Shown in pieces: positions 41,117-63,985 of a DNA stretch of 64,000 bases (positions are counted from its first letter, which is position 1; each line of letters opens with the position of its first letter). Where the stretch lies: positions 5,652 to 69,651 of the forward strand of contig JAWBPV010000005.1 in the NCBI GenBank assembly GCA_039000425.1, read 5' to 3'. The position numbers and the translations under genes were made by a program. The notes beneath the pieces were generated by a model. That model saw only the letters and a list, made by a program, of their open reading frames with translations. It had not been told where the DNA came from and did no database searches. Source of the DNA: Candidatus Aenigmatarchaeota archaeon (GTDB taxonomy: Archaea > Aenigmatarchaeota > Aenigmatarchaeia > CG10238-14 > SCSR01).

Positions 41117-42418
41117 CATTTAAATGGAACACTTACTTCTATTTGTGAAACTATGAAAAATTTTCGCAAAAACTGTTGTTATTATTATAATTGAAACTCA
41201 CAAAATCTTGGTTTCTTGTTTTTCATAGTTAGAATTTAAAATCAACAAATATTTGTCTGTTCTTTTGTCTAACCAACTCTCTGTTTGTTTCTTAAACTGT
41301 TTTAAAACTTTCTGTTTTTCCACTTCTCATACATTTCAAGCAAAAACTTAACAAAGTCTTCTTCCAAGTTAAAGCTTTCCTTTATGTCCAAAACCATACC
41401 GCAGTTCGAACAGTATTTTGAATTTACTGTGTTTATGTAACCGCACCTGAAACACTTGTTTAGCTTAGTTTCCTGTTTTTCCTCAACCTTCAAACCATTT
41501 ATTTCCAACAGTTTGTTTTCTATGTCTTTACCTGACAAATGAACATAAACACTAGCCATACTGCTACCCATGGACCAACCAGAAAAAACTTTCAGTTCTT
41601 GTTCTGTTAAATGTTTAGCTAATTCTGTAAGCCTTGAATGTCTGAACAAGTGTGGGTGTACTTTTTTCTTTATTCCAGTTTTATTGACAAGTTTTCTCAA
41701 CAGTTTTCTCACATACTGATAACTCATGTGCTGGTTTTCTTCTTTGTGCAACTTCAACCAAACATAACTTTCTGGTTCATTTCTTAACTTGTGATTTTCC
41801 AACCAGTTTCTGAAGTAAGGTACTGACTTTATCAACCTTATCCTTCTCTGTCCTGTCTTACCTTTCACTGTTATCACGCAACCATACTGGTCAAAACTCA
41901 CTTGTCTTATTTTCAAAGGAAGTAATTCACCTATCCTGCAACCACTTTCATACAGTACAGAAACAAAAGCTTTGTCCCTAGGGTTTTCACAGTTTTCAAC
42001 CATTTTCCATACTTCTTCTTCAGTCAAAAGTTCTTCTGGTAGTTTGTTATTCTTCGTGTCAAACCTCACTTTCAACTCAAAATTTTTCCCAACAAACTCA
42101 AGAAACTTCTTGACACAGTAATACCTTAACTTTTTCGTTTTAGGTTTGTATCCGTTCAAACTTAACAGAAAGGTTTCTACGTCTTCTTCTGTCACATCTT
42201 CGAAGTTTTTGTTTATTGTGCTAATAAACTGTTTTATTGAAATCAAGTACTTCAACCTTTGAACCAAACTTAAACCTTCTGCTTCTTTCTTTGTTAAGAA
42301 ACTCAAAACAAGTTTCTTGTTGTTTTCTGTTGTATTCCAGTTCTTAATGTTTTCTAGTTTTCTGTTGTATGTTTGCAAAGTGTTGTAGATATCGGAGAGA
42401 ATTGTACTTGAGTTAAGA
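41117..42418. repeat. inverted repeat copy A (~1.3 kb, contains integrase 2 and ~190 bp of 3' flank)
   Basis: Reverse complement aligns with 62715-63985 through the entire integrase ORF plus flanking non-coding DNA. The two copies diverge beyond ...ccatttaaatgt. Confidence 0.8.
41302..42378 (-). CDS. tyrosine recombinase / integrase with C-terminal zinc ribbon (paralogue 2, ~95% identical to paralogue 4)
   Basis: 358 aa. HPHLFRHSRLTE. YVHLSGKDIEN. CFRCGYINTVNSKYCSNCG. Confidence 0.9.
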   Translation of the reverse strand: MQTYNRKLENIKNWNTTENNKKLVLSFLTKKEAEGLSLVQRLKYLISIKQFISTINKNFEDVTEEDVETFLLSLNGYKPKTKKLRYYCVKKFLEFVGKNFELKVRFDTKNNKLPEELLTEEEVWKMVENCENPRDKAFVSVLYESGCRIGELLPLKIRQVSFDQYGCVITVKGKTGQRRIRLIKSVPYFRNWLENHKLRNEPESYVWLKLHKEENQHMSYQYVRKLLRKLVNKTGIKKKVHPHLFRHSRLTELAKHLTEQELKVFSGWSMGSSMASVYVHLSGKDIENKLLEINGLKVEEKQETKLNKCFRCGYINTVNSKYCSNCGMVLDIKESFNLEEDFVKFLLEMYEKWKNRKF

Positions 42419-42527
42419 TGGGCCTGCGGGGATTTGAACCCCGGACCAACGGGTTTCTTTCATCTTTTATCAAAGCTTTTAGCTTAAGCTAAAAGCCCGC
42501 TGCTCTACCATGCTGAGCTACAGGCCC
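42419..42527 (-). tRNA. intron-containing tRNA, most likely tRNA-Lys (anticodon TTT), ~35-nt intron
   Basis: Acceptor GGGCCTG/CAGGCCC. D-arm GCTC-AGCATGGTA-GAGC. Anticodon stem GCGGG/CCCGT encloses 42 nt beginning CTTTTA. T-arm CGGGG-TTCAAAT-CCCCG. Discriminator A. Confidence 0.6.
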
Positions 42528-42577
42528 ATAATAGACCTGTAATAAAAATAAGATTTGTGATATAAAAAATTTCAGAA

Positions 42578-42766
42578 TCATTTTAACCTGAACTTCTTCA
42601 AAGGATGCTTCCACTTCCAGCTGTACTTTTTTATCTTAGAACTCTTACCAAAACCACAGTGGGAGCAATACTTTTTATCAGGCCTGTAACTATGGTGTCC
42701 ACATCTCCTACATCTCACATGCTTAATCCCGATTTTTTTACCCATCGATGGCGTTCCTTTAACCAT
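42578..42766 (-). CDS. rpl37e: 50S ribosomal protein L37e
   Basis: [11 protein letters not shown]...CRRCGHHSY...CSHCGF C4 zinc ribbon. Confidence 0.85.
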
Positions 42767-42770
42767 ACTT

Positions 42771-43703
42771 TCACCACTCAAAATAAAAATTTCCTCCAGT
42801 TATAAATATTTCTCCTCCAGTTTTTTTAAATAAAATTTCTTGAGAAATTATAGATTTTTGGATGATTTTTTCCAATTGCTCTGGAGTTGCACTTAAATTT
42901 TCTTTCAAACTCTCATATCTCAAGATTTTTTCAAAATGTTGAAGACTCATCGGTAAATGTTTTTCATATTTTTTAATCACTTCTTGAATCTTATTCCGAA
43001 TTCTGTATTCATCGAATGTGCTATCAGGGAAGTAAATCGATATCAAAAGTTCATGTAAATCGAATTCACCCGGATTTTTCCTGTAAATTTCCGGGTTTAT
43101 CGAGTAAACTCCTTTCCAATCTTTTAAAATTAAATCCGTTTGTTGCATAACTTCAACAACACCACCCTTATGTCTCAACAAATGGTAGTACTTCGATCTT
43201 ATTTTTTCACTCGGTTTTAATTTGTTGTATTCGTCTTCATATTCTTCCACTTTTTTCAATTCCCTCAAACTTTTTTCATCACCATTTCTTCTCAAATGTT
43301 CTTTGTAACATTCCAACACGATTTTCCTCAATGTCGAGCAAGTATACTTTTCTACATTATTTCTACAGATAGTTAGGAATGTTTGGAAAAATAATTCATC
43401 ATTCAAAAACTGATCAGAGAACATGTATTTTTCAAGTTGCGTGAGTTCTTCAACTTTTGACTCTGAAAAATTTTGGAAGATTAGTCCGTCAAAAGATAGT
43501 TTATAACTTTTTCTATGAAATTCCACTAGATTACTCGACCTCATAAATTTCAAATGAATAAAAAGAAGTTTTGAGTCGATTTTATCATATCTCTCTTCAT
43601 ATCTTTCCTTCAACTCGCCAAATTTGGCTCGTGTAGCGTAATCTAATAAATGGATCAAACTCTTGATTTTTCTGAGATTTATTCCACCGTGCCACTCTAT
43701 CAT
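42771..43703 (-). CDS. hypothetical protein
   Basis: 310-aa ORF, charged, helical-looking. No motif. Confidence 0.45.
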
Positions 43704-43740
43704 GTAAACAAATATCGAATAAAATTTTTTAAATTTTATT

Positions 43741-43959
43741 TCAAACAGGACTAGCGTAAACTATCGTGTCCCCTCTTACTAGAATAGTACCAAGCCTAAC
43801 TTTTGTTTCATTCTTCGACACTTCAGCTTCATCCAACCATAAATTCAAGTGCAAATCTAAAGCTCTCAGTACTCCGGTTATCTCTTCACCGTTTTTCAAT
43901 TTTATCAAAACTTTTTTCCCCTTTGCTTTATCCAAAGCATCTATTGGCCTTTCTGTCAT
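43741..43959 (-). CDS. Sm-like archaeal protein (LSm/SmAP)
   Basis: 72 aa. PIDALDKAKGKKVLIKLKNGEEITGVLRALDLHLNLWLDEAEV is a classic Sm1/Sm2 pattern. Confidence 0.85.
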   Translation of the reverse strand: MTERPIDALDKAKGKKVLIKLKNGEEITGVLRALDLHLNLWLDEAEVSKNETKVRLGTILVRGDTIVYASPV

Positions 43960-44033
43960 ACTCTCCCTTTTTAAATTGGTTTAAATTAATATAAACGTTT
44001 AGATTTTTAAGCTTATTTTACCAATTTTTCTAA

Positions 44034-44480
44034 ATGGAACTTTTGGGCTACGCTTCGGCTTTCGTTGGAAATTTCATAGCCTCCTCCACAGTAGTCATAC
44101 CAATACCTTTCCTCCTAGTTTACGCTTACTTGGCAACTTTTCTTAACCCTTTCATCCTAGCCTTGATTTCAGCTTTTGGTTCTAGTCTTGGAGAACTAGT
44201 GAGCTATGCTTTAGGTTATGCTGGTAGTGATTTTTTGAATAAAAATAAGTTATTCAGGCTGGCTAAGAAATGGTTCAAGAAAAATGGAGCCTTGACCATT
44301 TTCATTTTTGCCGCAACTCCTCTTCCGGATGATGTTGTCGGTATTATAGCTGGAGCAACTAACTACAACAAATCTAAATTCTTCATATCTTGTTTGATGG
44401 GAAAGCTCGTTATGTTCCTAATGATCGCGATAATAGTTAGATATTCGAGTAATTTCATCAATTTAAATTGGATAGGCTGA
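44034..44480 (+). CDS. DedA/VTT-domain small membrane protein (YqaA-like)
   Basis: 148 aa. [14 protein letters not shown] motif. Confidence 0.55.
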
Positions 44481-44484
44481 GAAC

Positions 44485-44868
44485 ATGGCCATCTGGCATG
44501 GTGAAAAGGGAAGAAAAGAAACAGGAGGAAAGATAAGGTTGGCTAGGAAAAAGAAGAAAAGGGAGTTGGGAAATTTACCCGCTTTCACAAGAATAGGTGA
44601 AGAGAAGAGGGAAATATGTAGAACGAAAGGTGGTGGTATAAAGGTAAAGAGTCTAAGCGTAGAGTTTGCCAACGTTTTAGATCCGAAGACAAATCAATCC
44701 AAAAAAGTAAAGATTCTGGATATATTGGAAAATCCTGCTAATCCACACTTCGTTAGGAGAAAAATAATAACTAAAGGAGCTATAATAAAAACAGAAATCG
44801 GCAAAGCAAAAGTTACTTCAAGACCGAGTCAAGATGGTGTAGTTAACGCTGTTTTGATCGAATCTTAA
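44485..44868 (+). CDS. rps8e: 30S ribosomal protein S8e
   Basis: [29 protein letters not shown]. Confidence 0.9.
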
Positions 44869-44904
44869 AAAATAAAAGAAACAAAGCGCTATAATTTTTT
44901 TTAC

Positions 44905-46272
44905 ATGTCCGTGAAACATTTTTACGTATCACAATTGTTAAGATCGTTGGCAGAAGCTATGATTTCCCCATTCCTTTCAGTTTTCTTCCTATTCCTAGGT
45001 GCTACCAAGCCTTTGATAGGTTTAGCTTCAACTCTACCCAACATCTTTAATCTTTTTTCACAAGTTTTTTGGAGTATTTTGAGCGAGAAAAGTTATAGGA
45101 AAAAAATATTCGTAGTTTTCGGTGGAATAGCTTGGGCTGTTCTGTGGATTCCCATAGCTTTCGTTAAAGATGTGATGCTTTTAATATTGTTGTTGGTCAT
45201 TCAAGCAATACTCTCGGCTGCATCAGCTCCTACTTGGACTTCTTTACTCTTGAGGTTAATACCGAAGTACAAGGCAAGCGAAGTTGAGGGAAATTTCACC
45301 CTAGTTAGAAATTTTGCAAACCTTGTTGGAACTTTAATCGCAGGCCTCATACTGAACACACTCGGCTTCTTACCATTTTTCTTTTTCATCATAGCTTTAT
45401 TCGGTTTGTTGAGCAGGTTACCTTTTATTTGGGTGAGGGAAGTAAACTTTCTTAGAAGGAACGAAGATTTGAAAACGCTGATTAAAAGTATGTGGAATTT
45501 TTCCAGCTTGAAGAAAGAAACCAAGATGCTCAGACTTATGATCATGGTGACATTCTTGAATTTTTCTGTAACTTTTTCCTCACCATTCCTTTCAGTTTAT
45601 CTCGTAACAAACAAGGGAGGAAGTATAATAAACGTAGCTATAATATCTGTAATCTCAGCGATAACTTTCATAATATTCTCCAGGCCATGGGGAAGGACTT
45701 TAGATAAAATTGGGCCAAAAATCGTTTTTTACGTATGCATAATACCAATCTCTTTCCTTCCATCGATTTACGTGATTTCGCCGAAGATAGAGTGGATATA
45801 TGTCTATGAAGTTGTAGCATCTTTAGGATGGACAGGCTTCAACATAGCAACTTTTACCTATTTGGCGCATGCAGTGCCTAGGGAAAAACTTGATTCGTCG
45901 ATAGGCTTTTACAACTTGATAGTTGGTCTTGGATCTTCTTTTGGGCCTGTGGTAGGAGGAATAGTCTCTGAAAAAATAGGATTGAGTGCAGTTCTTCTGA
46001 TTTCCACGTTTCTCAGAATTCTGAGTTTAATATTCATAAATAAGTTGGAAGAAGAAGAGATGAAGTTTAAGTACAGGGGAGATTTTGATACTCGCGGCTT
46101 CATGTACAGAATTGAAAATTTGGTGAGTACTTACTCCATATTGATAAGGGAAACTTTAGGAGAAGGGTTGAAAGTTTTGGAATTTACGAACTCGCTTACC
46201 TCTTCTTTCCGAAAAGTCCCCAAACAACAAGCACAAAAATCAAGTAAGAGAAACCTGAAAGTAGGGAGATAA
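44905..46272 (+). CDS. MFS-type transporter
   Basis: 455 aa with ~12 TM helices. Confidence 0.65.
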   Translation: MSVKHFYVSQLLRSLAEAMISPFLSVFFLFLGATKPLIGLASTLPNIFNLFSQVFWSILSEKSYRKKIFVVFGGIAWAVLWIPIAFVKDVMLLILLLVIQAILSAASAPTWTSLLLRLIPKYKASEVEGNFTLVRNFANLVGTLIAGLILNTLGFLPFFFFIIALFGLLSRLPFIWVREVNFLRRNEDLKTLIKSMWNFSSLKKETKMLRLMIMVTFLNFSVTFSSPFLSVYLVTNKGGSIINVAIISVISAITFIIFSRPWGRTLDKIGPKIVFYVCIIPISFLPSIYVISPKIEWIYVYEVVASLGWTGFNIATFTYLAHAVPREKLDSSIGFYNLIVGLGSSFGPVVGGIVSEKIGLSAVLLISTFLRILSLIFINKLEEEEMKFKYRGDFDTRGFMYRIENLVSTYSILIRETLGEGLKVLEFTNSLTSSFRKVPKQQAQKSSKRNLKVGR

Positions 46273-46449
46273 CGTTAAGCTTGAATTCTATAGCTTCTCT
46301 TCCGGGAAATATGATGGAATAAATGCTTATCCCTATCAAACTCAAACCTATGAATGCTAGTATGAACAAGAAAGGCTTTATACTCTTGAACTTCATATTA
46401 TTATTTTGTTGCCACAAAGATTAATTTTTTTAATTGATAAGATATAAAG

Positions 46450-46731
46450 ATGAAAGAAGTGTTAACCTTAATAGGGTTGATGTTTTCCAACCCAATTTTT
46501 CCAGATTTTGGTATACAGTTTTTGGTTTCACTAGCAATAGGCATGATGCTCCCAGAGGTCATCATCAACCCTATAGATAGGCTTGTTAGGAAAATTCCAG
46601 GTGTTGATAAGTTCGTTAAACGTTTAGGTAAGAACAAGAGGTTAAGGACGATAATACCAAGAATACTAGCTGGTTACTTCTTCACTTATTTGATAGGGTT
46701 TTCTTTCCTTTTGTTAGCTAGATTTATGTAA
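46450..46731 (+). CDS. small membrane protein, hypothetical
   Basis: 93 aa, two hydrophobic helices. Confidence 0.35.
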   Translation: MKEVLTLIGLMFSNPIFPDFGIQFLVSLAIGMMLPEVIINPIDRLVRKIPGVDKFVKRLGKNKRLRTIIPRILAGYFFTYLIGFSFLLLARFM

Positions 46732-46741
46732 GAGGTGGAAA

Positions 46742-47494
46742 ATGATAGACGTACACTGTCATCTTGAGCAACCAGATTACGATCAAGATAGGGAAGAAGT
46801 TATAGAGAAATGCAGAAAAGAAATGAAAGCTGTTATAACTTCTTGCGTCCATCCAGCAGATTTCGAGCTAACTATGCGACTCGTTGAGAAATATAAGAAC
46901 TTTTTATTTACAACTGTCGGAATTCATCCGGAGTACGTGAAGGAAATCGGTGAAGCAGAAAGGATGGAATTCTTGGACATAGTGAGGAAAAATAGGGAAA
47001 AAATAGTTGGGATAGGGGAAGTTGGTTTAGATTTCTTGGTAGAAGAAGAGTGGAGGGGAAAACAAAAAGAGATGTTCAAAGATTTTATCCATATCGCGGA
47101 AGAGCTGGACAAGCCTTTGGTTGTTCATGCAAGGAAAGCTTTTGCTGAAGCTATCCAAATCCTAGAGGAAGAAAAAGTGAGAAAAGTTTTAATGCACTTT
47201 TTCACAGCAAACGATCTGGTCAAGAAAGTGAAGGAGAATGGTTGGTACGTTTCTGTTAACACAACTCTTCTAACCAGCAAGAAAGTGAAGAAAGTTGTGA
47301 GGGACATGCCTTTAGAGCAAATCTTGACAGAAACAGATGCTCCATGGTTAGGTCCGGGTGGAAAAAGGAATGATCCAAATTCTGTGAAATTTGTGATAGA
47401 GAAGATAAGCGAGATAAAGAAGATGAGTTTTGAAGAAGTGGACGAAATAACCACTAATAATGCGATAGAATTCTTCAATTTGAAGTTTGATTAA
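46742..47494 (+). CDS. tatD: TatD-family metal-dependent hydrolase
   Basis: MIDVHCHL start and overall TatD/TIM-barrel pattern. Confidence 0.8.
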   Translation: MIDVHCHLEQPDYDQDREEVIEKCRKEMKAVITSCVHPADFELTMRLVEKYKNFLFTTVGIHPEYVKEIGEAERMEFLDIVRKNREKIVGIGEVGLDFLVEEEWRGKQKEMFKDFIHIAEELDKPLVVHARKAFAEAIQILEEEKVRKVLMHFFTANDLVKKVKENGWYVSVNTTLLTSKKVKKVVRDMPLEQILTETDAPWLGPGGKRNDPNSVKFVIEKISEIKKMSFEEVDEITTNNAIEFFNLKFD

Positions 47495-47517
47495 AAAAAT
47501 AAAAACAGGGGAAAAGT

Positions 47518-47856
47518 TCATTTCTTCTTCGCTAAATCAAACACAGTTTTCAAAGCAACTATCGCTGCCGCTGGAGCCACGAAAACAACTATGTTACCCA
47601 CTATAGCTTCAAGGTATCTTCCCACTATAGGTAATTTTTCAAGACCAGCTGAACCAGCTAGCAATAAAGCTACGGAAGCGATTAAAAACGGTGTTGTTTC
47701 TTTTGCTGTTATGTTGAGTAGACCAACTATTAACCCAAGTATCACTAGAGCTATTGCCACCAACCCACCACTCTGTAGCAAAAGTCCTGCCAATACTGCT
47801 ATTACTATACCTACGAGGAAAGAATATTCCCCGATTTTTTGTTTCATCTTTTGCAC
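47518..47856 (-). CDS. small membrane protein, hypothetical
   Basis: 112 aa with 3-4 Gly/Ala/Leu-rich helices. Confidence 0.35.
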   Translation of the reverse strand: MQKMKQKIGEYSFLVGIVIAVLAGLLLQSGGLVAIALVILGLIVGLLNITAKETTPFLIASVALLLAGSAGLEKLPIVGRYLEAIVGNIVVFVAPAAAIVALKTVFDLAKKK

Positions 47857-47905
47857 CTAAAAGAAAATTTGTTTTTTAAATATAATATTTTATGTTCGTA
47901 TAACA

Positions 47906-49120
47906 TTAAACTCTATACCTCAAAATAGCACCTATTCCACTAAGCTCTTTGAATTGTATGCCTTCGCTTGTTTCGGTTGAAATATATTCGATTTTTGTTC
48001 CAAGCGAGGAAGCTTTTTCAACAAGTTGATCGAGCAATTCTTCACTTCCTTCAACTATCAATTTTTGTCCACATACAGGACACTTTTGTTTCTCCACCAA
48101 GAATTTTGGCAAAACTTTTTCTTCCTTATATCCACAAACACATCTGAACTTCACCCTTACCAAGTTGAATTCTTCAGAAATGAGAAGTGTGTCTACAGCA
48201 CCAGCTTCCAAAGCTTTTACAGTTTCTTCGAATCCGTAAACAACGTTACCCTCGTTCTTTAACTCAACGAAAAATTTGTTCAAAAGATCTCTTTCTTTAG
48301 TTATCAAGGCTTCTTTCAACAGATCTTGCGATTTATTCACCAGTTCTTCCAATCCATAATCATCTGTAGATCCTATATCTTTCACACCAAGGACTTTTTT
48401 CTGAAGCTGGTAGTGAAGGTAGCCTTTTTCGTAAAAAATTTCTTTGGTTGGACCAGGCCCACCTATGATTATCCCTTTGAGTTCGGGTTGCTGTAAGAAG
48501 AATTTTGAAGCTTCTTCCCCAACTTTTTTCAAGAACTCGTTCAAGGCATCGTCCCTTATCCTATCGTACCTTTTCTGCGACATACCACCTTTCACGGTTT
48601 TGCTCGGTACTGTTGATTCAAAACTCTTAATCTTCTCTATCCTTTTACCTTTCAGTAATCCTACAGTTGCTTCTCTTGCATCTAGTGTTATCAAGCCATA
48701 AACTTCTTTCTCCTCTATCAATTCTTTTAAAGGATCTAGAACAAAAGTTTGATCACACCAGTAAATTTTTTGGGAAATCGGAACAGGCGGCTCATAACTC
48801 CAAAGTTTTATATCAACTTTCCCTTCGACATCTGAAACATTTCCACAAAAAATCACCAACCCATTATCAGGAGTTTTCCTGAAAAGCTTAAGATGCTGGA
48901 TTATTTTCTCCAAAGCAGCCAGAACGTTCTTCCTAGTACTTTTACTTTTTATATTGTTTGCGGTTCCTTTTTCCTGGAATAGTTGGTTCATGGCTTCTGT
49001 TAAATTGTAGCCAGAAGGGATGTAAACGCTAACCAATTCAGTATGCCTCCCCCTTATTTTTTCAAGTTCCTTTATGAGTTTTTTCAAGGCAAGTTTTTCT
49101 TCTTCTTTCATTTCAACCAT
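47906..49120 (-). CDS. prf1: peptide-chain release factor aRF1 homologue (GGQ motif reads GGM)
   Basis: 404 aa. GTANNIKSKSTRKNV (NIKS codon-recognition motif) in domain 1. Domain 2 reads KGGMSQKRYDRIR where aRF1/eRF1 have GGQ. C-terminal CxxC...CxxC knuckle. Confidence 0.75.
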   Translation of the reverse strand: MVEMKEEEKLALKKLIKELEKIRGRHTELVSVYIPSGYNLTEAMNQLFQEKGTANNIKSKSTRKNVLAALEKIIQHLKLFRKTPDNGLVIFCGNVSDVEGKVDIKLWSYEPPVPISQKIYWCDQTFVLDPLKELIEEKEVYGLITLDAREATVGLLKGKRIEKIKSFESTVPSKTVKGGMSQKRYDRIRDDALNEFLKKVGEEASKFFLQQPELKGIIIGGPGPTKEIFYEKGYLHYQLQKKVLGVKDIGSTDDYGLEELVNKSQDLLKEALITKERDLLNKFFVELKNEGNVVYGFEETVKALEAGAVDTLLISEEFNLVRVKFRCVCGYKEEKVLPKFLVEKQKCPVCGQKLIVEGSEELLDQLVEKASSLGTKIEYISTETSEGIQFKELSGIGAILRYRV

Positions 49121-56248: not shown

Positions 56249-56525
56249 ATTTTTTCTTGAAAAAATTCTTTATTTTTTCTCTTAGATGGCATACAACATC
56301 GTTAACCGCTGTACCAAGGCTTAAGTTGAACAGTGTTATGTGACCAGTTAAAGCCGAGAAAAAAGCTACTATAGCACCAAGATATGCATGGTGTATCTTT
56401 ATTTTCTTCTTACCGTTGATTATAAAAAGCCTTAACCTTGGGAAATTCCTGGTAACAAGTTCGCTTATTATAAATCCTAGACCAAATACTATGAAGTCGA
56501 ACTGAAGGCTTTCTAGGCCTATCAT
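56241..56525 (-). CDS. small membrane protein, hypothetical
   Basis: 94 aa, two TM helices. Confidence 0.3.
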   Translation of the reverse strand: MIGLESLQFDFIVFGLGFIISELVTRNFPRLRLFIINGKKKIKIHHAYLGAIVAFFSALTGHITLFNLSLGTAVNDVVCHLREKIKNFFKKKSK

Positions 56526-56628
56526 TCAAATTAAATTGGTCGTAAAAGGTATTAAAAATTTTCTTTTTGGGAATTTTCTTACCTGAAAAGTAGTAAAAGA
56601 TTTAAATTTAACCTTACATTCAATAAGT

Positions 56629-56967
56629 ATGGCAAACGAAAAAGACTGGAAAGAATGTTTGAATCAAGAAGATAGGGAGATACTTGCTCAATTGATAGAA
56701 GCTACGAAGAAGCATAAATGTGCTTTCATGCAAGCCGAAGACGTAAAAGTTGCCCAACTTTGGTGTGCTTTGGTGGAAATGAGGAAGCAGATGGCTGAGA
56801 TGGAGAAAATAGTGGAAAAAGTTGCAGAACCCTTCAGGGCAATAGTGCAAATGGGAGAAATAGAGAAAAGGAAAACCATAGACAGGATGGTACGTGAGAT
56901 ATTAAGGCCAGAACCATACCAAGAAGAGGCTACCAAAAGGCTAGTAGATAGCTTGATGAAGTTTTGA
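56629..56967 (+). CDS. hypothetical protein
   Basis: 112 aa, helical, charged. Confidence 0.45.
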   Translation: MANEKDWKECLNQEDREILAQLIEATKKHKCAFMQAEDVKVAQLWCALVEMRKQMAEMEKIVEKVAEPFRAIVQMGEIEKRKTIDRMVREILRPEPYQEEATKRLVDSLMKF

Positions 56968-57006
56968 AGAAATAGGCTAGCAAGAGCTTTTTCAGTAAAG
57001 GTAAGA

Positions 57007-57153
57007 TTAACGTAAGCAAGCTGGTAAAGGCCACTGTTTACTTTTCATATGATACCTTATGCAAAGACAGCATATGCCATGTCTTTCACACCCTGTTTCA
57101 GGACATGGACAATCTTTTTCGTTAATTTCCTTGTTAGGACATTCTTTCCTCAT
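57007..57153 (-). CDS. candidate small Cys-rich protein (48 aa), not in ORF track
   Basis: MRKECPNKEINEKDCPCPETGCERHGICCLCIRYHMKSKQWPLPACLR. 10 Cys in 48 aa. It sits in the intergenic gap upstream of the DUF72 gene. Confidence 0.3.
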   Translation of the reverse strand: MRKECPNKEINEKDCPCPETGCERHGICCLCIRYHMKSKQWPLPACLR

Positions 57154-57191
57154 GTTATCAATTTATCCTTCTAAAAACCTAAATTTTTTTA

Positions 57192-57890
57192 GTGAAGGTC
57201 TTTGTGGGAACTTCTGGTTGGCTTTATGGATGGAACGAAGGAGGTACTCTTGATTGGTATCTCAAGAATTCGATGCTGAACTCTGTAGAGCTGAACATGT
57301 CTTTCTACCGTTTTCCTTTTCCGAATCAGGTTAAAGCTTGGGCTTCGAAAACTAGGGAAATTAACCCAGAGTTGAGGTGGAGTATAAAAGTTAGTAGGTT
57401 TATAACACACGTTTTCAAGTTTGGGGATAAAGCTTTAAAATTGTGGAAGGATTTCCAAAAACTTTTCAGGCCTTTGGAGAGGAACATAGACTTTTACCTT
57501 TTTCAGTTACCACCTTCGCTTTCCCCTAAAATTGGTCAAAAGCTCGAAGATTTCGTAAGAAGCACTAGACTTAAAGAAAAGTTCGCGCTGGAAGTTAGGA
57601 ACAAGGATTGGTTCAAGAAAGAATGTTTAGAATGGGCAGAAAAACTTGGAATAACTTGGGTAAGTGTTGATTCACCAGATTTTCCTTTAGAAGTTTATTG
57701 TACGAACGGGATAGTGTATGAAAGAATGCATGGGAGGACTTTTTGGTATTCTCATTATTACAGTGATAATGAACTGAAAGAAGTGAAGAAGAAGATTTTG
57801 AACCTAAAACCCGAAAAAGTTTACATCTTTTTCAACAATGACCATGCCATGTTGGATAACGCGAGGAAGATGTTGAAGTTGTTCTCATGA
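57192..57890 (+). CDS. DUF72-family protein
   Basis: 232 aa. VGTSGWLYGW...FYRFP signature. Confidence 0.75.
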   Translation: MKVFVGTSGWLYGWNEGGTLDWYLKNSMLNSVELNMSFYRFPFPNQVKAWASKTREINPELRWSIKVSRFITHVFKFGDKALKLWKDFQKLFRPLERNIDFYLFQLPPSLSPKIGQKLEDFVRSTRLKEKFALEVRNKDWFKKECLEWAEKLGITWVSVDSPDFPLEVYCTNGIVYERMHGRTFWYSHYYSDNELKEVKKKILNLKPEKVYIFFNNDHAMLDNARKMLKLFS

Positions 57891-57903
57891 TTTCTTCCAA
57901 AAA

Positions 57904-57975
57904 TGGACCGGCCGGGATTCGAACCCGGAGCCTTCTCCTTGCGAAGGAGACGATCTACCTTTGATCTACCGGCCC
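57904..57975 (-). tRNA. tRNA-Ala (anticodon CGC)
   Basis: Acceptor GGGCCGG/CCGGTCC with a G3:U70 pair. Anticodon arm TCTCC-TTCGCAA-GGAGA. T-arm CCGGG-TTCGAAT-CCCGG. Discriminator A. No intron. Confidence 0.85.
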
Positions 57976-58023
57976 TCAAATAAAACATAAGTAAAAATAA
58001 GATAATATTAAAATCTGTGAAAA

Positions 58024-58115
58024 GGGCACGTAGCTTAGCCTGGTTGGAGCAACCGAAGCTTTAGCTGTTGAAGCTGATAACCGGTAGGTCCCCGGTTCAA
58101 ATCCGGGCGTGCCCA
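58024..58115 (+). tRNA. intron-containing tRNA, probably tRNA-Ile (anticodon GAT) with a ~17-nt intron at a non-canonical position (30/31)
   Basis: Acceptor GGGCACG/CGTGCCC. D-arm GCTT-AGCCTGGTTG-GAGC. T-arm CCCGG-TTCAAAT-CCGGG. Removing AAGCTTTAGCTGTTGAA gives anticodon arm ACCGG-CTGATAA-CCGGT. A GAAGCT direct repeat sits at both junctions. Confidence 0.55.
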
Positions 58116-58178
58116 CTTTCCTTGGTTTAGAAGGATAGAAAAGTATTTAAGGGGATAGTTAGTATAAAAAATTAGTCT

Positions 58179-58802
58179 ATGAAAGGTATTTTCATAGCAT
58201 TCGAAGGTATAACAGGTTCTGGGAAAAAAACTCACATAAAACTCATAACGCAAGAGCTCTTGATGAGGAAAATCCCTTTCACAACTTTAAGCTTTCCAGA
58301 TTTTGAAAACGATATAGCAAGACTTACAAAAAGACTTCAACTAGATGCTTTCACTTTATCTTTACTATACGCTGCGGACAGAAGTTATTCTCAAGAAAGG
58401 ATAAAGAATTTACTCGAGGCTGGAAATGTTGTGATAACTGATAGGTATTGTTACAGTAATTTCGCTTATCAAGCAGCTAGGGGTTTACCTTTGGAATGGT
58501 TAATGGAAGTTGAAAAATTCTTCATAAAACCAGACATCGTTTTCTTGATAGATGTACCTGTTGAAGTTACGATGAGTAGGATCAAACAGTTGAGCTTAGA
58601 AGATTTCACGAAAAGGGAGATACTGGAAAGAATAGAGAAAGAGAGGGAAATTCTGGAGAAAACTAGGGAAATTTTCCTCAGACTTGCGAAGGAGAATAAA
58701 GAAGCGAAATGGTTCGTAATCGATGCCACAAAAAGTATAGAAGAAGTTCATCAAGAAATTTGGTCCATTCTTGAGCCTGAATTGGAAAAAATTAAAAGCT
58801 AA
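58179..58802 (+). CDS. tmk: thymidylate kinase
   Basis: 207 aa. FEGITGSGKKT P-loop. DRYCYSNFAYQ. Confidence 0.85.
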   Translation: MKGIFIAFEGITGSGKKTHIKLITQELLMRKIPFTTLSFPDFENDIARLTKRLQLDAFTLSLLYAADRSYSQERIKNLLEAGNVVITDRYCYSNFAYQAARGLPLEWLMEVEKFFIKPDIVFLIDVPVEVTMSRIKQLSLEDFTKREILERIEKEREILEKTREIFLRLAKENKEAKWFVIDATKSIEEVHQEIWSILEPELEKIKS

Positions 58803-58837
58803 AAATTTTTAACTTAATTTTCAAATATTTTTTATAC

Positions 58838-58944
58838 GCCCCGTTCGTCTAGTCCGGTCAAGGACGCGGCCCTTTCGATAAATCTCGAAAGGTTTGATGA
58901 AAAGATGATAGGCTGCAACCTGGGTTCAAATCCCAGACGGGGCA
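58838..58944 (+). tRNA. tRNA-Glu (anticodon TTC) with ~32-nt intron
   Basis: Acceptor GCCCCGT/ACGGGGC. D-loop TAGTCCGGTCAAG (Glu-like). Anticodon stem CGGCC/GGCTG encloses 39 nt starting CTTTCG. The intron 3' part TCGAAAGG pairs with exon CCTTTCGA. T-arm CTGGG-TTCAAAT-CCCAG. Confidence 0.7.
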
Positions 58945-58966
58945 TGCTTATTTCTTCAATTCCCAT

Positions 58967-60208
58967 TTGGCTTTTATAAGCAATCAAAACAAGGCTAAAA
59001 TCATGCCTGAACTTTATGGTTATGAGAAAGGAATAGAAAGGGGATTGTTGGCAATTAAACAAATAGATGAAAGAACTTATGAAAAAGTGAAGGAGTTTGT
59101 GAGGAAGTTGGAAACTAACAATTATTCGAAAGGAAGGATTTACAAGTACATTTATTTCTTGAAAACTCTCAGAGAGTTGCTTGGAAAAGATTTTAGTGAA
59201 GCTAAAAAACAAGATGTTGAAGAATTGGTGATAAAGCTTAACAACAATAACTATTCTGAAGCTTCAAAATCGGATTTCAAGAAAATTTTGAAATTTTACA
59301 TGAGGTGGCTTAAGTTTGGAAAGCTTGATGGGAAATATCCTGAAGAAGTAGAATGGATTAAAACAACGATCAAGAAAAACAACGAGAAAGTTCCTGAGCA
59401 AATTTTAACTCAGAAAGAAGTTGAATTGATTGCAAATCAAGCAGAAAATTCGATGGAAAGAGCCTTTGTTTTGTGCTTGTATGAAACAGGTTGCAGGATC
59501 GGAGAATTTTTGAACATGAGAATTAAAGATATAAGCTTTGATCAGTATGGATGCTACATTTTGGTTTCGGGAAAAACAGGATGGAGAAGAGTAAGGGTTT
59601 TAGATTACAGCAAGGATTTGATAAGTTGGTTGGATTCTCATCCTTTCAAATCAAATCCTGAAAGCTTTGTTTGGGTAAACCCAAAGAATCAAAAGAGATT
59701 GCTTCCCGATGATGCTAATCACATGTTAAAAAATTTGGCCAAGAAAGCAGGAATAGCAAAAGCATGCAATCCCCATGCTTTCAGGCATGCAAGGGCTACT
59801 CATTTGGCTAAAATACTAACTGAACAGCAATTGAAAGTTTACTTTGGATGGGCTAAAGATTCAGGAATGGCTTCTGTTTATGTTCATTTATCAGGAGAAG
59901 ATGTTGATGAATCTTTGTTGAAAGCAAAGGGAATAAAAGTAGAGAAAGAAAGGGAAGAAGTTAAGCCTCTTGTGAGAATATGCCAAAAATGCAATGAACC
60001 GAATTCTTCTTTATCCCATTTCTGTAAAAAATGTGGTTCTCCTTTGGATTTGAAGATAGTTCTTGAGTTGGATGAGCAGAGGAAAAGGTTTGAAGAATTG
60101 CTAAGGGATTTCTTGGTTTATTATGCTGAAAAAGATAAGAATTTCAAGAAAGTTCTTGTTCAGTTTATCAAGGAAAGGAAAGCGGAAAATTTATTCTTTA
60201 GTGGTTAA
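58967..60208 (+). CDS. tyrosine recombinase / integrase with C-terminal zinc ribbon (paralogue 3)
   Basis: 413 aa. NPHAFRHARATH. YVHLSGEDVDE. CQKCNEPNSSLSHFCKKCG. The likely start is MPELYGYEKG. Confidence 0.85.
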   Translation: MAFISNQNKAKIMPELYGYEKGIERGLLAIKQIDERTYEKVKEFVRKLETNNYSKGRIYKYIYFLKTLRELLGKDFSEAKKQDVEELVIKLNNNNYSEASKSDFKKILKFYMRWLKFGKLDGKYPEEVEWIKTTIKKNNEKVPEQILTQKEVELIANQAENSMERAFVLCLYETGCRIGEFLNMRIKDISFDQYGCYILVSGKTGWRRVRVLDYSKDLISWLDSHPFKSNPESFVWVNPKNQKRLLPDDANHMLKNLAKKAGIAKACNPHAFRHARATHLAKILTEQQLKVYFGWAKDSGMASVYVHLSGEDVDESLLKAKGIKVEKEREEVKPLVRICQKCNEPNSSLSHFCKKCGSPLDLKIVLELDEQRKRFEELLRDFLVYYAEKDKNFKKVLVQFIKERKAENLFFSG

Positions 60209-60276
60209 TAAGAAATTACAGCTTAATATTAAAGTATGAGAACTTCCAAAGTTTAAGAATTGATTTAAAATTCTTA

Positions 60277-61503
60277 CTAACAAGTGAAAAACTCAATGTC
60301 CCCATTATATTTCGGTGTATATAATGTTTTATCAAGTGGTATGCCGAATAGTTCATTTCCCCAATCTTCTATACACTCATCAAAATAGGGAGATTCGCAA
60401 AAATACAGCATTATTTGGTGGCCCCGCATGAATTTGTGGGGCAAGTGAATTTTTTCAAATTTTGGATATGGGTTAGGTATTACTATTTCGTCCATTATCC
60501 TCCAATCCTCTATCGGAAAATTAATTTCGATGATTTTTTCAACATTTTGCTCTACTATTGTGTTTGGAAGACCATGTAAGATAATATTAGGTCCGAATTC
60601 ATCGGAAATGTTTTTCTGTTCCAAATATGAAAGATAATAAGTTTTTTCTGGACTCCCCTTAATTTTAAGAAGTATTTTATTTTCGGTGCAAGCAATTTTT
60701 TCTACTTGAGGAGGGTTGTAAAATCTACCTTCACTTATATGGATAAATGAAGGTGGTTTTTCAGGGTAAAATGTAAAATTAGAGGGCGGTGAAATATCAA
60801 ATGGTACTATTTTAGAAAAGAAAATAGCTTCCATAGAAAATATTTCCTCACCGTTAACTCTGGCTTTAAATAACAATGGAATGCCTACTTCCTTATCATA
60901 ACAAATGTCAATAGTTGAGTTATCAGGTAAATTAAATTCAATCAGGTAACAATCTCTATCAACAATTTTTACTGTTTTTTTTAATTCAAGCTTAATTTTT
61001 TCACCCATTGCTTCAAGCAGACGATTTAAGTAATCTACGACCTCTTTAACACTCCGAAAATTTAATCTGGAATAGTTTATGTCTATCGGAGATGTTATAA
61101 AGTAAGGATAACCTATGCAATTCTCTTCGTTTTTTTCACATTCAATTACTAAGATTGTATTATCACTTTCATTAAATAATTCATAAACAACAGAAATTTT
61201 CTCTCGACTTTCGTTTTCATATAAAATATATATTTCTGATTTGGTGAAAGGAAACCTGTGAATTAAATTGTCTTTTCCAACTCTCTTCCCACCTAAGTAA
61301 AGGTCATAGATTGCTTGAAATTCTTTTAAAGATTCAAATTTGTTTGTGCTTTCTTTGATTATTTCTATTGCTGAGACGGGTTTAGAAAACAATAAGGCCC
61401 ATATTAATAGAATACCAAAGGCTGTAACAAGGCCAAAAATAAAATAAAATTTTGGTCCTAACACTATTGTAACAGTTTTATAAGCGTATTTTCTTTTTCT
61501 CAT
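60277..61503 (-). CDS. membrane-anchored hypothetical protein (element cargo)
   Basis: 408 aa. N-terminal TM helix (FYFIFGLVTAFGILLIWALLF). Large extracytoplasmic-looking domain. No motif. Confidence 0.5.
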   Translation of the reverse strand: MRKRKYAYKTVTIVLGPKFYFIFGLVTAFGILLIWALLFSKPVSAIEIIKESTNKFESLKEFQAIYDLYLGGKRVGKDNLIHRFPFTKSEIYILYENESREKISVVYELFNESDNTILVIECEKNEENCIGYPYFITSPIDINYSRLNFRSVKEVVDYLNRLLEAMGEKIKLELKKTVKIVDRDCYLIEFNLPDNSTIDICYDKEVGIPLLFKARVNGEEIFSMEAIFFSKIVPFDISPPSNFTFYPEKPPSFIHISEGRFYNPPQVEKIACTENKILLKIKGSPEKTYYLSYLEQKNISDEFGPNIILHGLPNTIVEQNVEKIIEINFPIEDWRIMDEIVIPNPYPKFEKIHLPHKFMRGHQIMLYFCESPYFDECIEDWGNELFGIPLDKTLYTPKYNGDIEFFTC

Positions 61504-61588
61504 AACTCTTTTTATTATTTAGTATGCTTTATTATAAATTTAAAGGTTAGTGAGGTTGTCTGGACAGATCAACATTGTTACAATAAGA

Positions 61589-61759
61589 TTATTTTTCCAG
61601 CTTGACATCTTTTAGTAAATTCGCAGTAACTTTCAAAGCAAACCTTATCGCTTTTGTTCTTGTTTTAATTTTTAAAGCTTTTTCTATAATTTCAAAATTC
61701 TTCAAATCCTCTTCCTTTTCCCTGAAAGTTATCGTCATGCTATCACTATCATTTAGCAT
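61589..61759 (-). CDS. candidate ribbon-helix-helix (CopG-like) small regulator (56 aa), not in ORF track
   Basis: MLNDSDSMTITFREKEEDLKNFEIIEKALKIKTRTKAIRFALKVTANLLKDVKLEK. The beta-strand TITF plus two helices with T-R-T-x-x-I-R-x-A-L match the RHH pattern. It lies upstream of the 408-aa ORF on the same strand. The plus-strand track ORF 61602-61901 is its antisense. Confidence 0.45.
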   Translation of the reverse strand: MLNDSDSMTITFREKEEDLKNFEIIEKALKIKTRTKAIRFALKVTANLLKDVKLEK

Positions 61760-62008
61760 GAATTCGATAGCTTATAAATTCCAAATTTTCAGTTTGCTAT
61801 CAAAAAAAGCTTATTTCAACATCAGCGAAAAACCAACTTTTCAAGCTTTGAAATACATGCTTATTCTGAAATCTTTTTTATTCAATTTTCTATCAAATTG
61901 AAAACTGCTTTTCAAATGATCAAGATTGCATGAGAAAGGTGATATGAAAGAAGCGTATTACATATATCTGATTCCCTACATAGTTAAAAAACTTTCAGGC
62001 ATGATAAT

Positions 62009-62545
62009 TTGGGAGTGATATTCACAGCTCCAGACTTAAACTTCATAGATGCTCAAACTAGGAAGCTCTTCCATGCTTACATCGAGTGTTTGATGATAGA
62101 TTATGAAAAGCAACAAGTTATCGCTAAGTACATGGAAATTCAGAACAATCCCAGGTTTGGTAAGGAATACTTTAAGTACCCAAGAATAAGAGTTGGCAAT
62201 GAGATCATTGTTGTGAACAGGATTTTGATTAACAAGCCAAGCGAAAAGTTGATAGAGGATTATGAAGTTAAAAAGAGGGAATTCACCAGAAACTTGAAGA
62301 TTGAAGTTGAAAAAAGCTTGAAAAAAGAGAGGGAAGTGAAGGAAATGTACACTTTTTCGCTTGATGAAGTTGTTGAAGATGCTTTAAAGAACTTGAATTC
62401 TTTAATTTCAAGATACAAGGGAAGAACATTCATCGATCCTGATTTGATAAGGGCTAAGTACAATGTTGGCATACACAGAGCTAAAATGATCAAGAAAGTT
62501 TTGGAAAAGAGGGTAAACTTGAGTGAAATAAAGCAAAATACTTAA
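62009..62545 (+). CDS. hypothetical protein (element cargo; start uncertain, TTG at 62009 or ATG at 62093)
   Basis: 178-aa ORF. No motif. Confidence 0.4.
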   Translation: MGVIFTAPDLNFIDAQTRKLFHAYIECLMIDYEKQQVIAKYMEIQNNPRFGKEYFKYPRIRVGNEIIVVNRILINKPSEKLIEDYEVKKREFTRNLKIEVEKSLKKEREVKEMYTFSLDEVVEDALKNLNSLISRYKGRTFIDPDLIRAKYNVGIHRAKMIKKVLEKRVNLSEIKQNT

Positions 62546-62579
62546 TTTTTTAACTAAATTATCAGAGAAAAATCAAAAA

Positions 62580-62624
62580 TTCAACATTTGTTGAATTATA
62601 GATAAATTATTTCAACATGTTGAA
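62580..62624. promoter_or_regulatory. pair of palindromic sites TTCAACA(N0-2)TGTTGAA spaced ~30 bp apart
   Basis: ttcaacatttgttgaa (62580-62595) and the perfect 14-bp palindrome ttcaacatgttgaa (62611-62624), about 85 bp upstream of the repeat/attR junction. Confidence 0.4.
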
Positions 62625-62714
62625 TTTTCAGGTTTTGTGAAAAGATAACCTTTTTATTTCTTAAAAACAATAGTAAATTAGCCTGTGGGAATTGAAGAAA
62701 AGCATGTTCTCAGG

Positions 62715-63985
62715 CGGGGCATACTAACTCAAGTACAGTTCTCTCCGATATATACAACACTTTGCAAACATACAACAGAAAACTAGAAAACATTAAGAAC
62801 TGGAATACAACAGAAAGCAACAAGAAACTTGTTCTGAGTTTCTTAACAAAGAAAGAAGCAGAAGGTTTAAGTTTGGTTCAAAGGTTGAAGTACTTGATTT
62901 CGCTAAAACAGTTTGTTAGCACAACAAACAAAAACTTTGAAGATATGACAGAAAAAGACATGGAAAAGTTTCTACTGAGTTTGAATGGTTACAAACCAAG
63001 CACAAAACACACAAGGTATTACTGTGTTAAGAAGTTTCTTGAGTTTGTTGGTAAGAAGTTTGAATTGAAAGTGAGGTTTGACACGAAGAACAACAAACTA
63101 CCAGAAGAACTTTTGACTGAAGAAGAAGTATGGAAAATGGTTGAAAACTGTGAAAACCCTAGGGATAAAGCTTTTATTTCAGTACTGTATGAAAGTGGTT
63201 GCAGGATAGGTGAACTACTTCCTTTGAAAATAAGACAAGTGAGTTTCGACCAGTATGGTTGTGTGATAACAGTAAAAGGTAAGACAGGACAGAGAAGGAT
63301 AAGGTTGATAAAGTCAGTACCTTACTTCAGAAACTGGTTGGAAAATCACAAGTTAAGAAATGAACCAGAAAGTTATGTTTGGTTGAAGTTGCACAAAGAA
63401 GAAAACCAGCACATGAGTTATCAGTATGTGAGAAAACTGTTAAAAAAACTTGTTGAGAAAACTGGAATAAAGAAAAAAGTACACCCACACTTGTTCAGAC
63501 ATTCAAGGCTTACAGAGTTAGCTAAACACTTGACAGAACAAGAACTGAAAGTTTTTTCTGGTTGGTCCATGGGTAGTAAAATGGCTAGTGTTTACGTACA
63601 TTTGTCAGGTAAAGACATAGAAAACAAACTGTTGGAAATAAATGGTTTAAAAGTTGAGGAAAAACAGGAAACTAAGCTAAACAAGTGTTTCAGGTGCGGT
63701 TACATAAACACAGTAAATTCAAAATACTGTTCGAACTGTGGCATGGTTTTGGACATAAAGGAAAGCTTGAACTTGGAAGAAGACTTTGTTAAGTTTTTGC
63801 TTGAAATGTATGAGAAGTGGAAAAACAGAAAGTTTTAAAACAGTTTAAGAAACAAAAAAAAGACTTGGTTAGACAAAAGAACAAACAAATGAAGTTTGTG
63901 AGTTTAAGTTTACAATATAAACAACAGTTTTTTGCGAAAATTTTTCCTAGTTTCACAAATAGTAGTAAGTGTTCCATTTAAATGT
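62715..63985. repeat. inverted repeat copy B (contains integrase 4 and 3' flank)
   Basis: See copy A. Homology starts at cat|actaactcaagtaca (62720) and is still present ~150 bp past the stop codon. Confidence 0.8.
62762..63838 (+). CDS. tyrosine recombinase / integrase with C-terminal zinc ribbon (paralogue 4)
   Basis: 358 aa. ~95% identical to the minus-strand copy at 41302-42378. Confidence 0.9.
   Translation: MQTYNRKLENIKNWNTTESNKKLVLSFLTKKEAEGLSLVQRLKYLISLKQFVSTTNKNFEDMTEKDMEKFLLSLNGYKPSTKHTRYYCVKKFLEFVGKKFELKVRFDTKNNKLPEELLTEEEVWKMVENCENPRDKAFISVLYESGCRIGELLPLKIRQVSFDQYGCVITVKGKTGQRRIRLIKSVPYFRNWLENHKLRNEPESYVWLKLHKEENQHMSYQYVRKLLKKLVEKTGIKKKVHPHLFRHSRLTELAKHLTEQELKVFSGWSMGSKMASVYVHLSGKDIENKLLEINGLKVEEKQETKLNKCFRCGYINTVNSKYCSNCGMVLDIKESLNLEEDFVKFLLEMYEKWKNRKF

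Follow-up and report, generated by a model that had tools for sequence, protein, structure and literature searches.

Zinc-ribbon integrase genes beside tRNA genes form an inverted repeat around housekeeping genes of an Aenigmatarchaeota archaeon

Archaeal integrases prefer the 3' ends of tRNA genes as targets, with an integration core that can be as short as the 14 bp of SNJ2, and it is known that elements can integrate in tandem, that related integrases can switch targets, and that inversions occur between related elements lying in opposite orientation (PMC8371274, PMC5861418). Classical, non-suicidal integrases of the SNJ2 and pNOB8 types were described by Wang et al. 2018 (PMC5861418) and Badel et al. 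2021 (PMC8371274). Documented rearrangements include the TKV2/TKV3 chromosomal inversion in Thermococcus kodakarensis and inversions in T. nautili driven by the pTN3 integrase, which acts on segments identical over at least 104 bp (PMC8371274). DPANN archaea and zinc-ribbon integrases do not figure in the 2021 review of archaeal tyrosine recombinases (PMC8371274). Here we describe integrases of this latter kind in a 64,000-nt stretch (the window) of contig JAWBPV010000005.1, from the Candidatus Aenigmatarchaeota assembly GCA_039000425.1, in which two genes for a 358-residue tyrosine recombinase, int358L and int358R, form the core of an inverted repeat around a block of housekeeping genes.

Our comparisons make it probable that the two arms of this repeat are the integrase modules, next to the attachment (att) sites, of two related but independently acquired integrative elements residing at two tRNA genes of opposite orientation. 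Few descriptions exist of mobile elements integrated in DPANN archaea, and the locus is a clean sequence-level example that comprises a widespread zinc-ribbon integrase family (>1000 homologs at E<=1e-10), short tRNA 3'-end cores, tandem occupancy of one tRNA, near-identical elements common to species that are ~80% identical in housekeeping genes, and occupied as well as empty sites within one species. Such elements also break or mis-join metagenome assemblies, which is relevant to reading synteny in metagenome-assembled genomes (MAGs). The locus is an ordinary kind of archaeal integration hotspot, with no new mechanism and no built-in switch for essential genes.

The inverted repeat and the integrase genes

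A first-pass annotation of this DNA had reported an inverted duplication of ~1.3 kb encoding 358-residue tyrosine recombinases, and alignment, open reading frames (ORFs) and Pfam matches all agree with it.

41107-42418, minus strand: left repeat arm; att-proximal 40 bp, int358L and about 195 bp downstream (repeat search, gapped alignment)
41302-42378, minus strand: int358L, tyrosine recombinase, 358 aa; from residue 25 an exact match to MEM5853293.1
62723-63994, plus strand: right repeat arm; left end of an int358-type element running beyond the window (repeat search, gapped alignment)
62762-63838, plus strand: int358R, tyrosine recombinase, 358 aa; identical to MEM5853317.1

Gapped alignment pairs 41107-42418 with 63994-62723. 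Within these arms lies an ungapped core of 1136 nt (41280-42415 against 63860-62725) at 94.6% identity, which is above the ~85% that the first-pass annotation had named as the least its claim could bear, while the outer ~175 nt are about 87-100% identical, with indels. The repeat search placed the arms at 41284-42420 and 62720-63856 (1137 nt, 95% complementary), plus three shorter outer pieces; a repeat of such length cannot arise by chance. Similarity extends past the ORFs by 40 bp on the 5' side and about 195 bp on the 3' side, close to the ~45 bp and ~150-190 bp first proposed, and the window ends 6 nt past the right arm.

The two proteins share 341 of 358 residues, so that the early estimate of ~95% identity holds while its count of about 15 substitutions rises to 17. 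At the nucleotide level 57 of 1077 positions differ (94.7% identity), and the longest identical tracts measure 167, 87, 86 and 74 bp. Both genes are under purifying selection, given an overall ratio of nonsynonymous (pN, 0.026) to synonymous (pS, 0.169) differences of 0.16. The divergence is a mosaic patch and not uniform drift, with pS reaching 0.39 in codons 41-100 against 0.04-0.14 elsewhere; we infer that this patch may relate to the different tRNA targets of the two genes. Both database entries lie on the 79,289-bp contig of a Candidatus Aenigmatarchaeota MAG. Another ORF of 358 aa, at 34628-35704, was considered as a third copy and rejected, being DUF763.

Both int358 proteins match the Pfam family Phage_integrase (PF00589, 1.7e-24) and carry an N-terminal SAM-like domain. 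Their C-terminal zinc ribbon gives a weak Pfam match below the Pfam cut-off, and four invariant cysteines confirm it as a C4 ribbon. Pfam also recovered two integrase genes that the first-pass annotation had missed, together with a tandem element, when it counted two recombinases in the segment. The window therefore holds four tyrosine recombinases of one type: the int358 pair and the following two genes.

39471-40709, plus strand: int412, tyrosine recombinase with C-terminal zinc ribbon; Phage_integrase 5e-23; exact match to MEM5853291.1; annotated NCBI start 39555, giving 384 aa
58967-60208, plus strand: int413 integrase; annotated start 59003; Pfam

These two are 35-39% identical to each other and to int358 (35% for int412 versus int413, 39% for int413 versus int358). 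R148, K174, H243, R246, W268 and Y278 are invariant in the four paralogs and two outgroups, and the four ribbon cysteines are invariant in all four paralogs; the PF00589 match and the catalytic R-K-H-x-x-R-W-Y set together place the proteins in the tyrosine recombinase superfamily. All four ORFs are full length while integrated, with att junctions 22-130 bp upstream of their start codons. The suicidal type (SSV/pTN3/pT26-2) is ruled out and the classical type indicated because the integrated int genes are intact. Judged from its sequence, the enzyme is predicted to be a Xer-like tyrosine recombinase of the classical, non-suicidal kind, with a C4 zinc ribbon at its C terminus. The locus is an integration hotspot, in that 25 kb contain four paralogous integrases and three tRNA attachment sites.

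Attachment sites and their occupancy in other genomes

The integrases sit around the ends of a conserved block of genes, and each end of this block is a tRNA gene.

42419-42527, minus strand: tRNA-Lys(UUU), intron-containing; Rfam tRNA 61.3 bits; its 3' end adjoins the left arm
42528-58837, no strand: conserved housekeeping block (Pfam), colinear in the relatives L014, L018 and L019
58838-58944, plus strand: tRNA-Glu(UUC), intron-containing; Rfam 45.6 bits; target of both int413-type and int358-type elements
58945-62707, plus strand: int413 element, 3.8 kb; int413, a 408-aa membrane ORF and ORFs of 99 and 178 aa
60277-61503, minus strand: orf408, membrane ORF of 408 aa within the int413 element
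62708-62722, plus strand: tRNA-Glu 3'-end remnant, 15 nt, a degenerate direct copy (TTCTCAGGCGGGGCA); attR of the int413 element and junction to the right int358

Including its flanking tRNA-Lys and tRNA-Glu genes, which lie at opposite ends and point outward, the housekeeping block spans 16.5 kb (42419-58944). It contains rpl37e, LSm, VTT, rps8e, MFS, TatD, aRF1, ValRS and TldD-like genes (Pfam), followed by a PEGA protein, a metallophosphoesterase, DUF72, tRNA-Ala, an intron-containing tRNA and tmk (Pfam/Rfam). The first-pass description of a 20.3-kb interior made up of housekeeping genes, without cargo-like bias, is correct for this block alone, since 58945-62722 is an integrated element with int413 and three ORFans (ORFs without known relatives), where the GC fraction falls to 0.30.

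At the left junction, of attL type, the 3' end of tRNA-Lys reads ...CAGGCCCA (in a longer reading ...CCCCGCAGGCCCA) and is followed immediately by the left arm, which begins TCTTAACTCAAGTACA. At the right junction the tRNA-Glu remnant TTCTCAGGCGGGGCA is followed by TACTAACTCAAGTACA, where the right arm begins. Only the left copy adjoins an intact tRNA, the right copy lying at the remnant, 3.8 kb from tRNA-Glu itself. The tRNAs at the junctions score 45-61 bits, and int358 lies downstream of the tRNA 3' end and is transcribed outward. Targeting of tRNA 3' ends, as in classical integrative elements, was found at the Lys and Glu junctions and at those of five contigs from elsewhere that are described below (L001-L003, L006 and L098). 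These junctions show that this integrase family sits directly downstream of tRNA 3' ends and is transcribed away from them, and from their sequences we infer that the integration core would be about 11-14 nt at the extreme tRNA 3' end.

The int413 element is delimited on both sides. The tRNA-Glu gene is followed by TGCTTATTTCTTCAATTCCCA and then int413, and those 15 nt recur perfectly inverted at 62686-62700, within terminal inverted arms at 58945-58971 and 62680-62707; a direct repeat of 18 nt (15/18 matching) at 58931-58948 and 62708-62725 supplies attL and attR. Inverted arms around a tRNA-derived core, together with the direct repeat, identify 58945-62707 as a 3.8-kb element behind which the int358 element stands in tandem. 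The acceptor pair U7-A66 of the window tRNA-Glu is C7-G66 in relatives (L001, L014, L018), and the remnant beside the right int358 carries G66, so the remnant probably came in with an element or is older than a compensatory change of the host tRNA. Introns are present in four of the six tRNA genes of the window (42419-42527, 58024-58115, 58838-58944, 24854-24950); because of them ARAGORN miscalls two ('tRNA-Phe aaa' and 'tRNA-Stop tta') and misses two, and Rfam finds all six. A conspecific MAG, GCA_039000415.1, has two int413-type genes (MEM5855317 and MEM5855758-759), one lying beside tmk on a contig of 8.4 kb and the other with orf408 on a separate contig of 3.3 kb; this second one may be a copy of the 3.8-kb element that is not integrated or was not placed.

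Near-identical copies of the right-hand element occur in other metagenomes. In L001, L002 and L003, tmk and tRNA-Glu are followed directly by int358, without the int413 element, and the junction there reads intact tRNA-Glu and then TACTAACTCAAGTACA. Identity to the right arm is 99.1-99.7% across the element sequence of these contigs, against 66-85% for the flanking genes of L002. A fourth contig from an independent sample, L004, has the same tandem junction as the window, from int413-element end to remnant to int358. The int358 genes of L001-L004 differ from int358R at 3-7 nt (99.4-99.7% identity), compared with 57 nt between int358R and int358L, and those of L002, L003 and L004 are identical to one another. 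Since the right copy is 99.4-99.7% identical to copies from other species and only 94.7% identical to the left, the two appear to have been acquired independently and not to have arisen by duplication. By this measure the two elements would represent lineages 5% diverged and not recent copies of one element. An alternative raised in the first-pass annotation, two insertions at two tRNA 3' ends in opposite orientation, is thus supported by the junctions, by right-type copies at tRNA-Glu elsewhere and by empty tRNA-Lys sites; its further suggestion that these were recent insertions of the same element fails on the 5% divergence.

L003 and L004 also extend the right int358 element by a 188-aa ORF and small helix-turn-helix (HTH) genes; what we report of this element past window position 64000 comes from these two contigs alone and amounts to 1.5 kb. 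The 188-aa cargo ORF is MEM5853318.1, on the window's own 79-kb contig. The int413 element also gives evidence of mobility: L018 belongs to another species (84% identity in ValRS), and its int413 protein is 99.7% identical and its element DNA, over the first ~1 kb and the adjoining tRNA-Glu region, 97.4% identical, against 76% for the adjacent tmk. A scan of a genome collection with int358 gave one useful locus, L006, from another Aenigmatarchaeota MAG. This contig ends 38 codons into an int358 homolog that is 89-95% identical there, and a third tRNA is followed by CAGTAACTCAAGTACA (...GAGCCCA and then CAGTAACTCAAGTACAG), an element end as in the window. In L098, a 58%-identical int358 homolog begins 40 bp after yet another tRNA; a search for attR in this contig was negative. 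Scans of viral contigs with int358, int412, int413 and the 188-aa ORF gave no match.

Empty sites complement these occupied ones. The tRNA-Lys site is empty in L014 and L019, tRNA-Glu lacks the int413 element in L001-L003, and a tRNA-Gly site treated below is empty in L099-L101. L014, a 140-kb contig (aRF1 81% identical), carries the whole block colinear and without any integrase, and retains after tRNA-Glu a 115-bp remnant of the left end of the int413 element (L014:2065-2175, minus strand) that includes the first 13 integrase codons. To judge by this remnant, the int413 element once occupied the site and was later deleted. The outer flanks of L014 and L019 are unlike the window and unlike each other.

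Taken together, these comparisons point to two modules, each of which would run from an element end through the integrase gene to about 195 bp beyond it; the left module would have integrated at tRNA-Lys(UUU), and the right at the tRNA-Glu(UUC) site, in tandem behind the int413 element. The int358 copies are inverted because the two tRNA genes face apart, and since the tRNAs point outward in all these relatives, integration at both sites yields inverted modules without duplicating the block borders. Several points weigh against this account. A copy of the tRNA-Lys 3' end that could serve as attR of the left copy was searched for and not found, and the left copy may be a recombinant or decayed remnant rather than a simple insertion; nor did a protein search find the left-type int358 variant in any other assembly. 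For the right int358 element, the search for attR in L003 and L004 was negative, the site lying beyond the window and beyond the 1.5 kb recovered, and that span shows no complete element bounded by matching att sites. Finally, the window contig was assembled from a metagenome and might be chimeric at these repeats.

The left island and alternative explanations

The last of these concerns bears on the region around int358L, which extends over a left island (39429-42418) with the following features besides int412 and the left arm.

39418-39428, minus strand: tRNA-Gly(CCC)-like 3'-end remnant, 11 nt, attR-type (CGGCTGGCGCA); left boundary of the left island
40903-41094, minus strand: zn63, 63-aa CxxC...CxxC ORF in the unique flank of the left copy (ORF list); exact match to MEM5853292.1

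The int413 element is bounded by direct att repeats, whereas the ends of the left island differ: the window keeps the last 11 nt of tRNA-Gly and passes into int412, so that the island is bounded by a tRNA-Gly remnant on its int412 side and by tRNA-Lys on its int358L side. For the att arm of int412, a search for an inverted partner was negative; zn63 was found in no other MAG and has no match among Pfam and PHROG families. Three copies of AAATAGTC(CCC) lie close together at 39490-39527, after the tRNA-Gly remnant and before the annotated int412 start, and may be candidate binding sites for the integrase or a regulator. Homologs of int412 at >=90% identity occur in other MAGs (MEM4500486.1, labelled Woesearchaeota, and MEM5766199.1, on an 86.6-kb Aenigmatarchaeota contig), and this element type, too, may be passed between lineages. 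The remnant is preceded by orf235 (38627-39334), which has a homolog at L019:4708-5334 that is 31% identical, with 'AAWDAARHA'-like repeats, at a different position inside that relative's block; orf235 may itself be a variable or mobile gene.

Five conspecific contigs (L099-L103, from two NCBI MAGs and three Logan assemblies) encode the same radical-SAM protein at 100% identity and align to the window at 99.7-100%, and all of them stop matching exactly at 39428. Past this position an intact tRNA follows on the minus strand in L099, L100 and L101 (L099:3117-3202, 49 bits; the anticodon loop reads Gly-CCC), and L102 and L103 end at 39428. Beyond tRNA-Gly, L099 carries HTH (also in L100), IscS, NifU and FtsX genes, none of which is in the window.

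We read gene orders from the accession numbers of exact-protein matches. In the MAG of the window, numbered by the ends of these accessions, the left part runs from the first ORF (239) through the radical-SAM protein (288), orf235 (290), int412 (291) and zn63 (292) to int358L (293), and the right part from aRF1 (303) through tmk (312), int413 (313), orf408 (314) and int358R (317) to the 188-aa ORF (318); the HTH, IscS, NifU and FtsX genes are 102, 101, 100 and 097, and hence on a different contig. GCA_044343505.1 has the window's first ORF (a C-terminal fragment at the contig end), five proteins, tmk, DUF72, orf112b and the metallophosphoesterase, and GCA_038999945.1 has the mirror of this order; int413, orf408, int358 and the 188-aa ORF are absent from both. 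It follows from these orders that in these two MAGs the tRNA-Glu end of the block joins the left end of the window's 39-kb flank via about five genes. In both MAGs the block and the 39-kb flank are oriented as in the window, and the window order of flank, island and block is a circular permutation of the conspecific order, not an inversion. A permuted junction of this sort is expected either from recombination of same-orientation elements at tRNA-Gly and tRNA-Lys or from an assembler cycle via a collapsed repeat. Structural variation among conspecific assemblies is visible in any case, in occupied versus empty att sites and in the permuted junction, the latter possibly an assembly artefact.

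That the window order is partly such an artefact, a cycle or mis-join through collapsed mobile-element repeats by which the left island joins non-adjacent loci, is the most serious of the competing explanations, though we consider it only a tentative one. It would account for the common stop of all five conspecific contigs at 39428, where the ends of two Logan contigs suggest a graph branch, for the finding that genes which elsewhere come after tRNA-Gly lie on another contig of the window MAG, for a permuted order like that of a path around a graph cycle, and for the mismatched att ends. However, no second copy of an island sequence that could be the collapsed repeat was found in the window MAG, the junctions 39428/39429 and 42418/42419 each look like bona fide att junctions, and the 5% divergence of the int358 genes is enough for assemblers to separate them. 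An artefact would also concern the left junction only, because both int358 copies and their tRNA junctions exist regardless.

The other route to the permuted order, which we regard as rather unlikely, is that the left island is a genuine recombinant junction, produced by integrase-catalysed or homologous recombination of same-orientation elements at tRNA-Gly and tRNA-Lys and joining the right end of the 39-kb flank to the tRNA-Lys end of the block. Part of the population would then carry a translocated, tandem or roughly 79-kb circular arrangement with essential genes (aRF1, ValRS, ribosomal proteins). If true, this would be direct evidence, at the level of a population, for the remodelling of DPANN chromosomes at tRNA genes by elements with zinc-ribbon integrases.

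The first-pass annotation had emphasized the repeat as a substrate for inversion, and inversion of the block via the 1.3-kb repeat would be mechanistically possible. The 1.14-kb core at 94.6% identity includes a 167-bp perfect tract and several of 64-87 bp, both integrases appear intact, and there are precedents in TKV2/TKV3 of T. kodakarensis and in the pTN3 integrase, which acts on identical segments of >=104 bp (PMC8371274). As a possibility this part of the proposal stands, but that the int358 pair is an invertible-segment system or a used substrate, its arms recombining to flip a 20-kb segment so that both orientations occur in the population, appears improbable. By the refuting condition that the first-pass annotation had itself set, this idea is weakened: no assembly has the block flipped, and both copies have unique, element-like outer flanks. 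The junctions that a flip would create, tRNA-Lys with right-type cargo and tRNA-Glu/orf178 with left-type flank, occur in no contig; right-type copies are linked to tRNA-Glu in all four contexts, and the block keeps its orientation to the 39-kb left flank in the two conspecific MAGs with reconstructable linkage. The att-side sequences differ (Lys versus Glu 3' ends), hence there is no matched pair of inversion sites, homologous recombination is suppressed by 5% divergence, and inverting this block has no evident regulatory logic. A programmed invertible segment of the shufflon, Hin or Fim kind was likewise rejected, on the differing att-side sequences and the lack of an alternate orientation in any assembly. 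Intragenomic duplication of one integrase gene (replicative transposition or segmental) followed by divergence is scarcely credible: equal ORF lengths, common upstream and downstream non-coding sequence and a single contig would fit it, but the right copy is nearer to copies of other species, so that the common ancestor predates the spread of the right type across hosts, the two copies have different tRNA targets and cargo flanks, and both are absent from conspecific MAGs.

Some further observations concern other genes of the window. The PEGA surface protein gene (53406-55514) contains two 90-nt direct repeats, 82% identical and 141 nt apart (54117-54347). The aRF1 gene is interrupted in several relatives (L019:12414-14108 and L020:11154-12848), where tblastn matches are split by about 480 nt, and some aRF1 homologs (P0134, P0164, P0205) are 535-566 aa long with Hint/intein Pfam domains, which suggests that the relatives' aRF1 may carry an intein and the window aRF1 none. 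At 2308-3270 on the minus strand lies a free-standing LAGLIDADG homing-endonuclease gene (NCBI name, MEM5853241.1), which has 278 aa in one conspecific MAG.

Comparison with known integrases and elements

The nearest solved structures and the nearest curated family by sequence are those of archaeal XerA (4a8e, 2.4e-19; also PDB 5hxy). The integrases described here differ from XerA in that each lies beside a tRNA att site and carries an extra C-terminal zinc ribbon. We rejected their identification as XerA, the dif-site resolvase, since they score 131, 114 and 128 bits with the NCBIfam XerA model NF040815, against a cut-off of 220, are present as four copies in 25 kb and are absent from conspecific MAGs. 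Of the 1016 homologs that a protein search returned at E<=1e-10, those with a name are archaeal (Aenigmatarchaeota, Bathyarchaeota, Thermoplasmatales, Thermoproteota); several homologs owe the label 'XerD/ribosomal protein L40E' to their zinc ribbon.

Of the annotated relatives, the best are viral: integrases from pleomorphic viruses of Geoglobus and Archaeoglobus match at 36-37% identity over 93% of the protein. Integrases of non-halophilic pleolipoviruses (Geoglobus acetivorans pleomorphic virus 1, BK065156; ThalV2, BK065158) share the four zinc-ribbon cysteines, and in these viruses, too, the integrase is the first gene at the genome or att end. In contrast to pleolipoviruses, the cargo recovered here contains no VP3/VP4-like structural genes in Pfam and PHROG scans. 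It consists of ORFans and small HTH proteins, for which PHROG and Pfam give weak HTH matches only, and the elements may be viruses, plasmids or cryptic elements.

The inverted arrangement most resembles that of TKV2/TKV3 and pTN3, where related elements likewise lie in opposite orientation at different tRNA genes, with kilobase-scale inverted homology around chromosomal genes. In those systems both orientations were seen experimentally, and here neither was; the integrases here are also classical ones, in contrast to the suicidal pTN3/pT26-2 types.

In their integration behavior, the elements compare with the SNJ2/pNOB8-type classical integrases. SNJ2 itself was not among the tblastn matches to phage records at E<=1e-8, and no Orf2/Orf3-like accessory operon of the SNJ2 type was seen at this locus. 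Both groups have the R...HxxR...Y set, target the extreme 3' end of tRNA genes, use a short core (about 11-14 nt at this locus, against 14 bp for SNJ2) and leave int intact once integrated; in both, related integrases occupy different tRNA genes and integrate in tandem. The integrases of our window differ in belonging to Aenigmatarchaeota (DPANN) hosts, in carrying a C4 zinc ribbon after the catalytic tyrosine, and in having their att site upstream of the 5' end of int instead of downstream of its 3' end.

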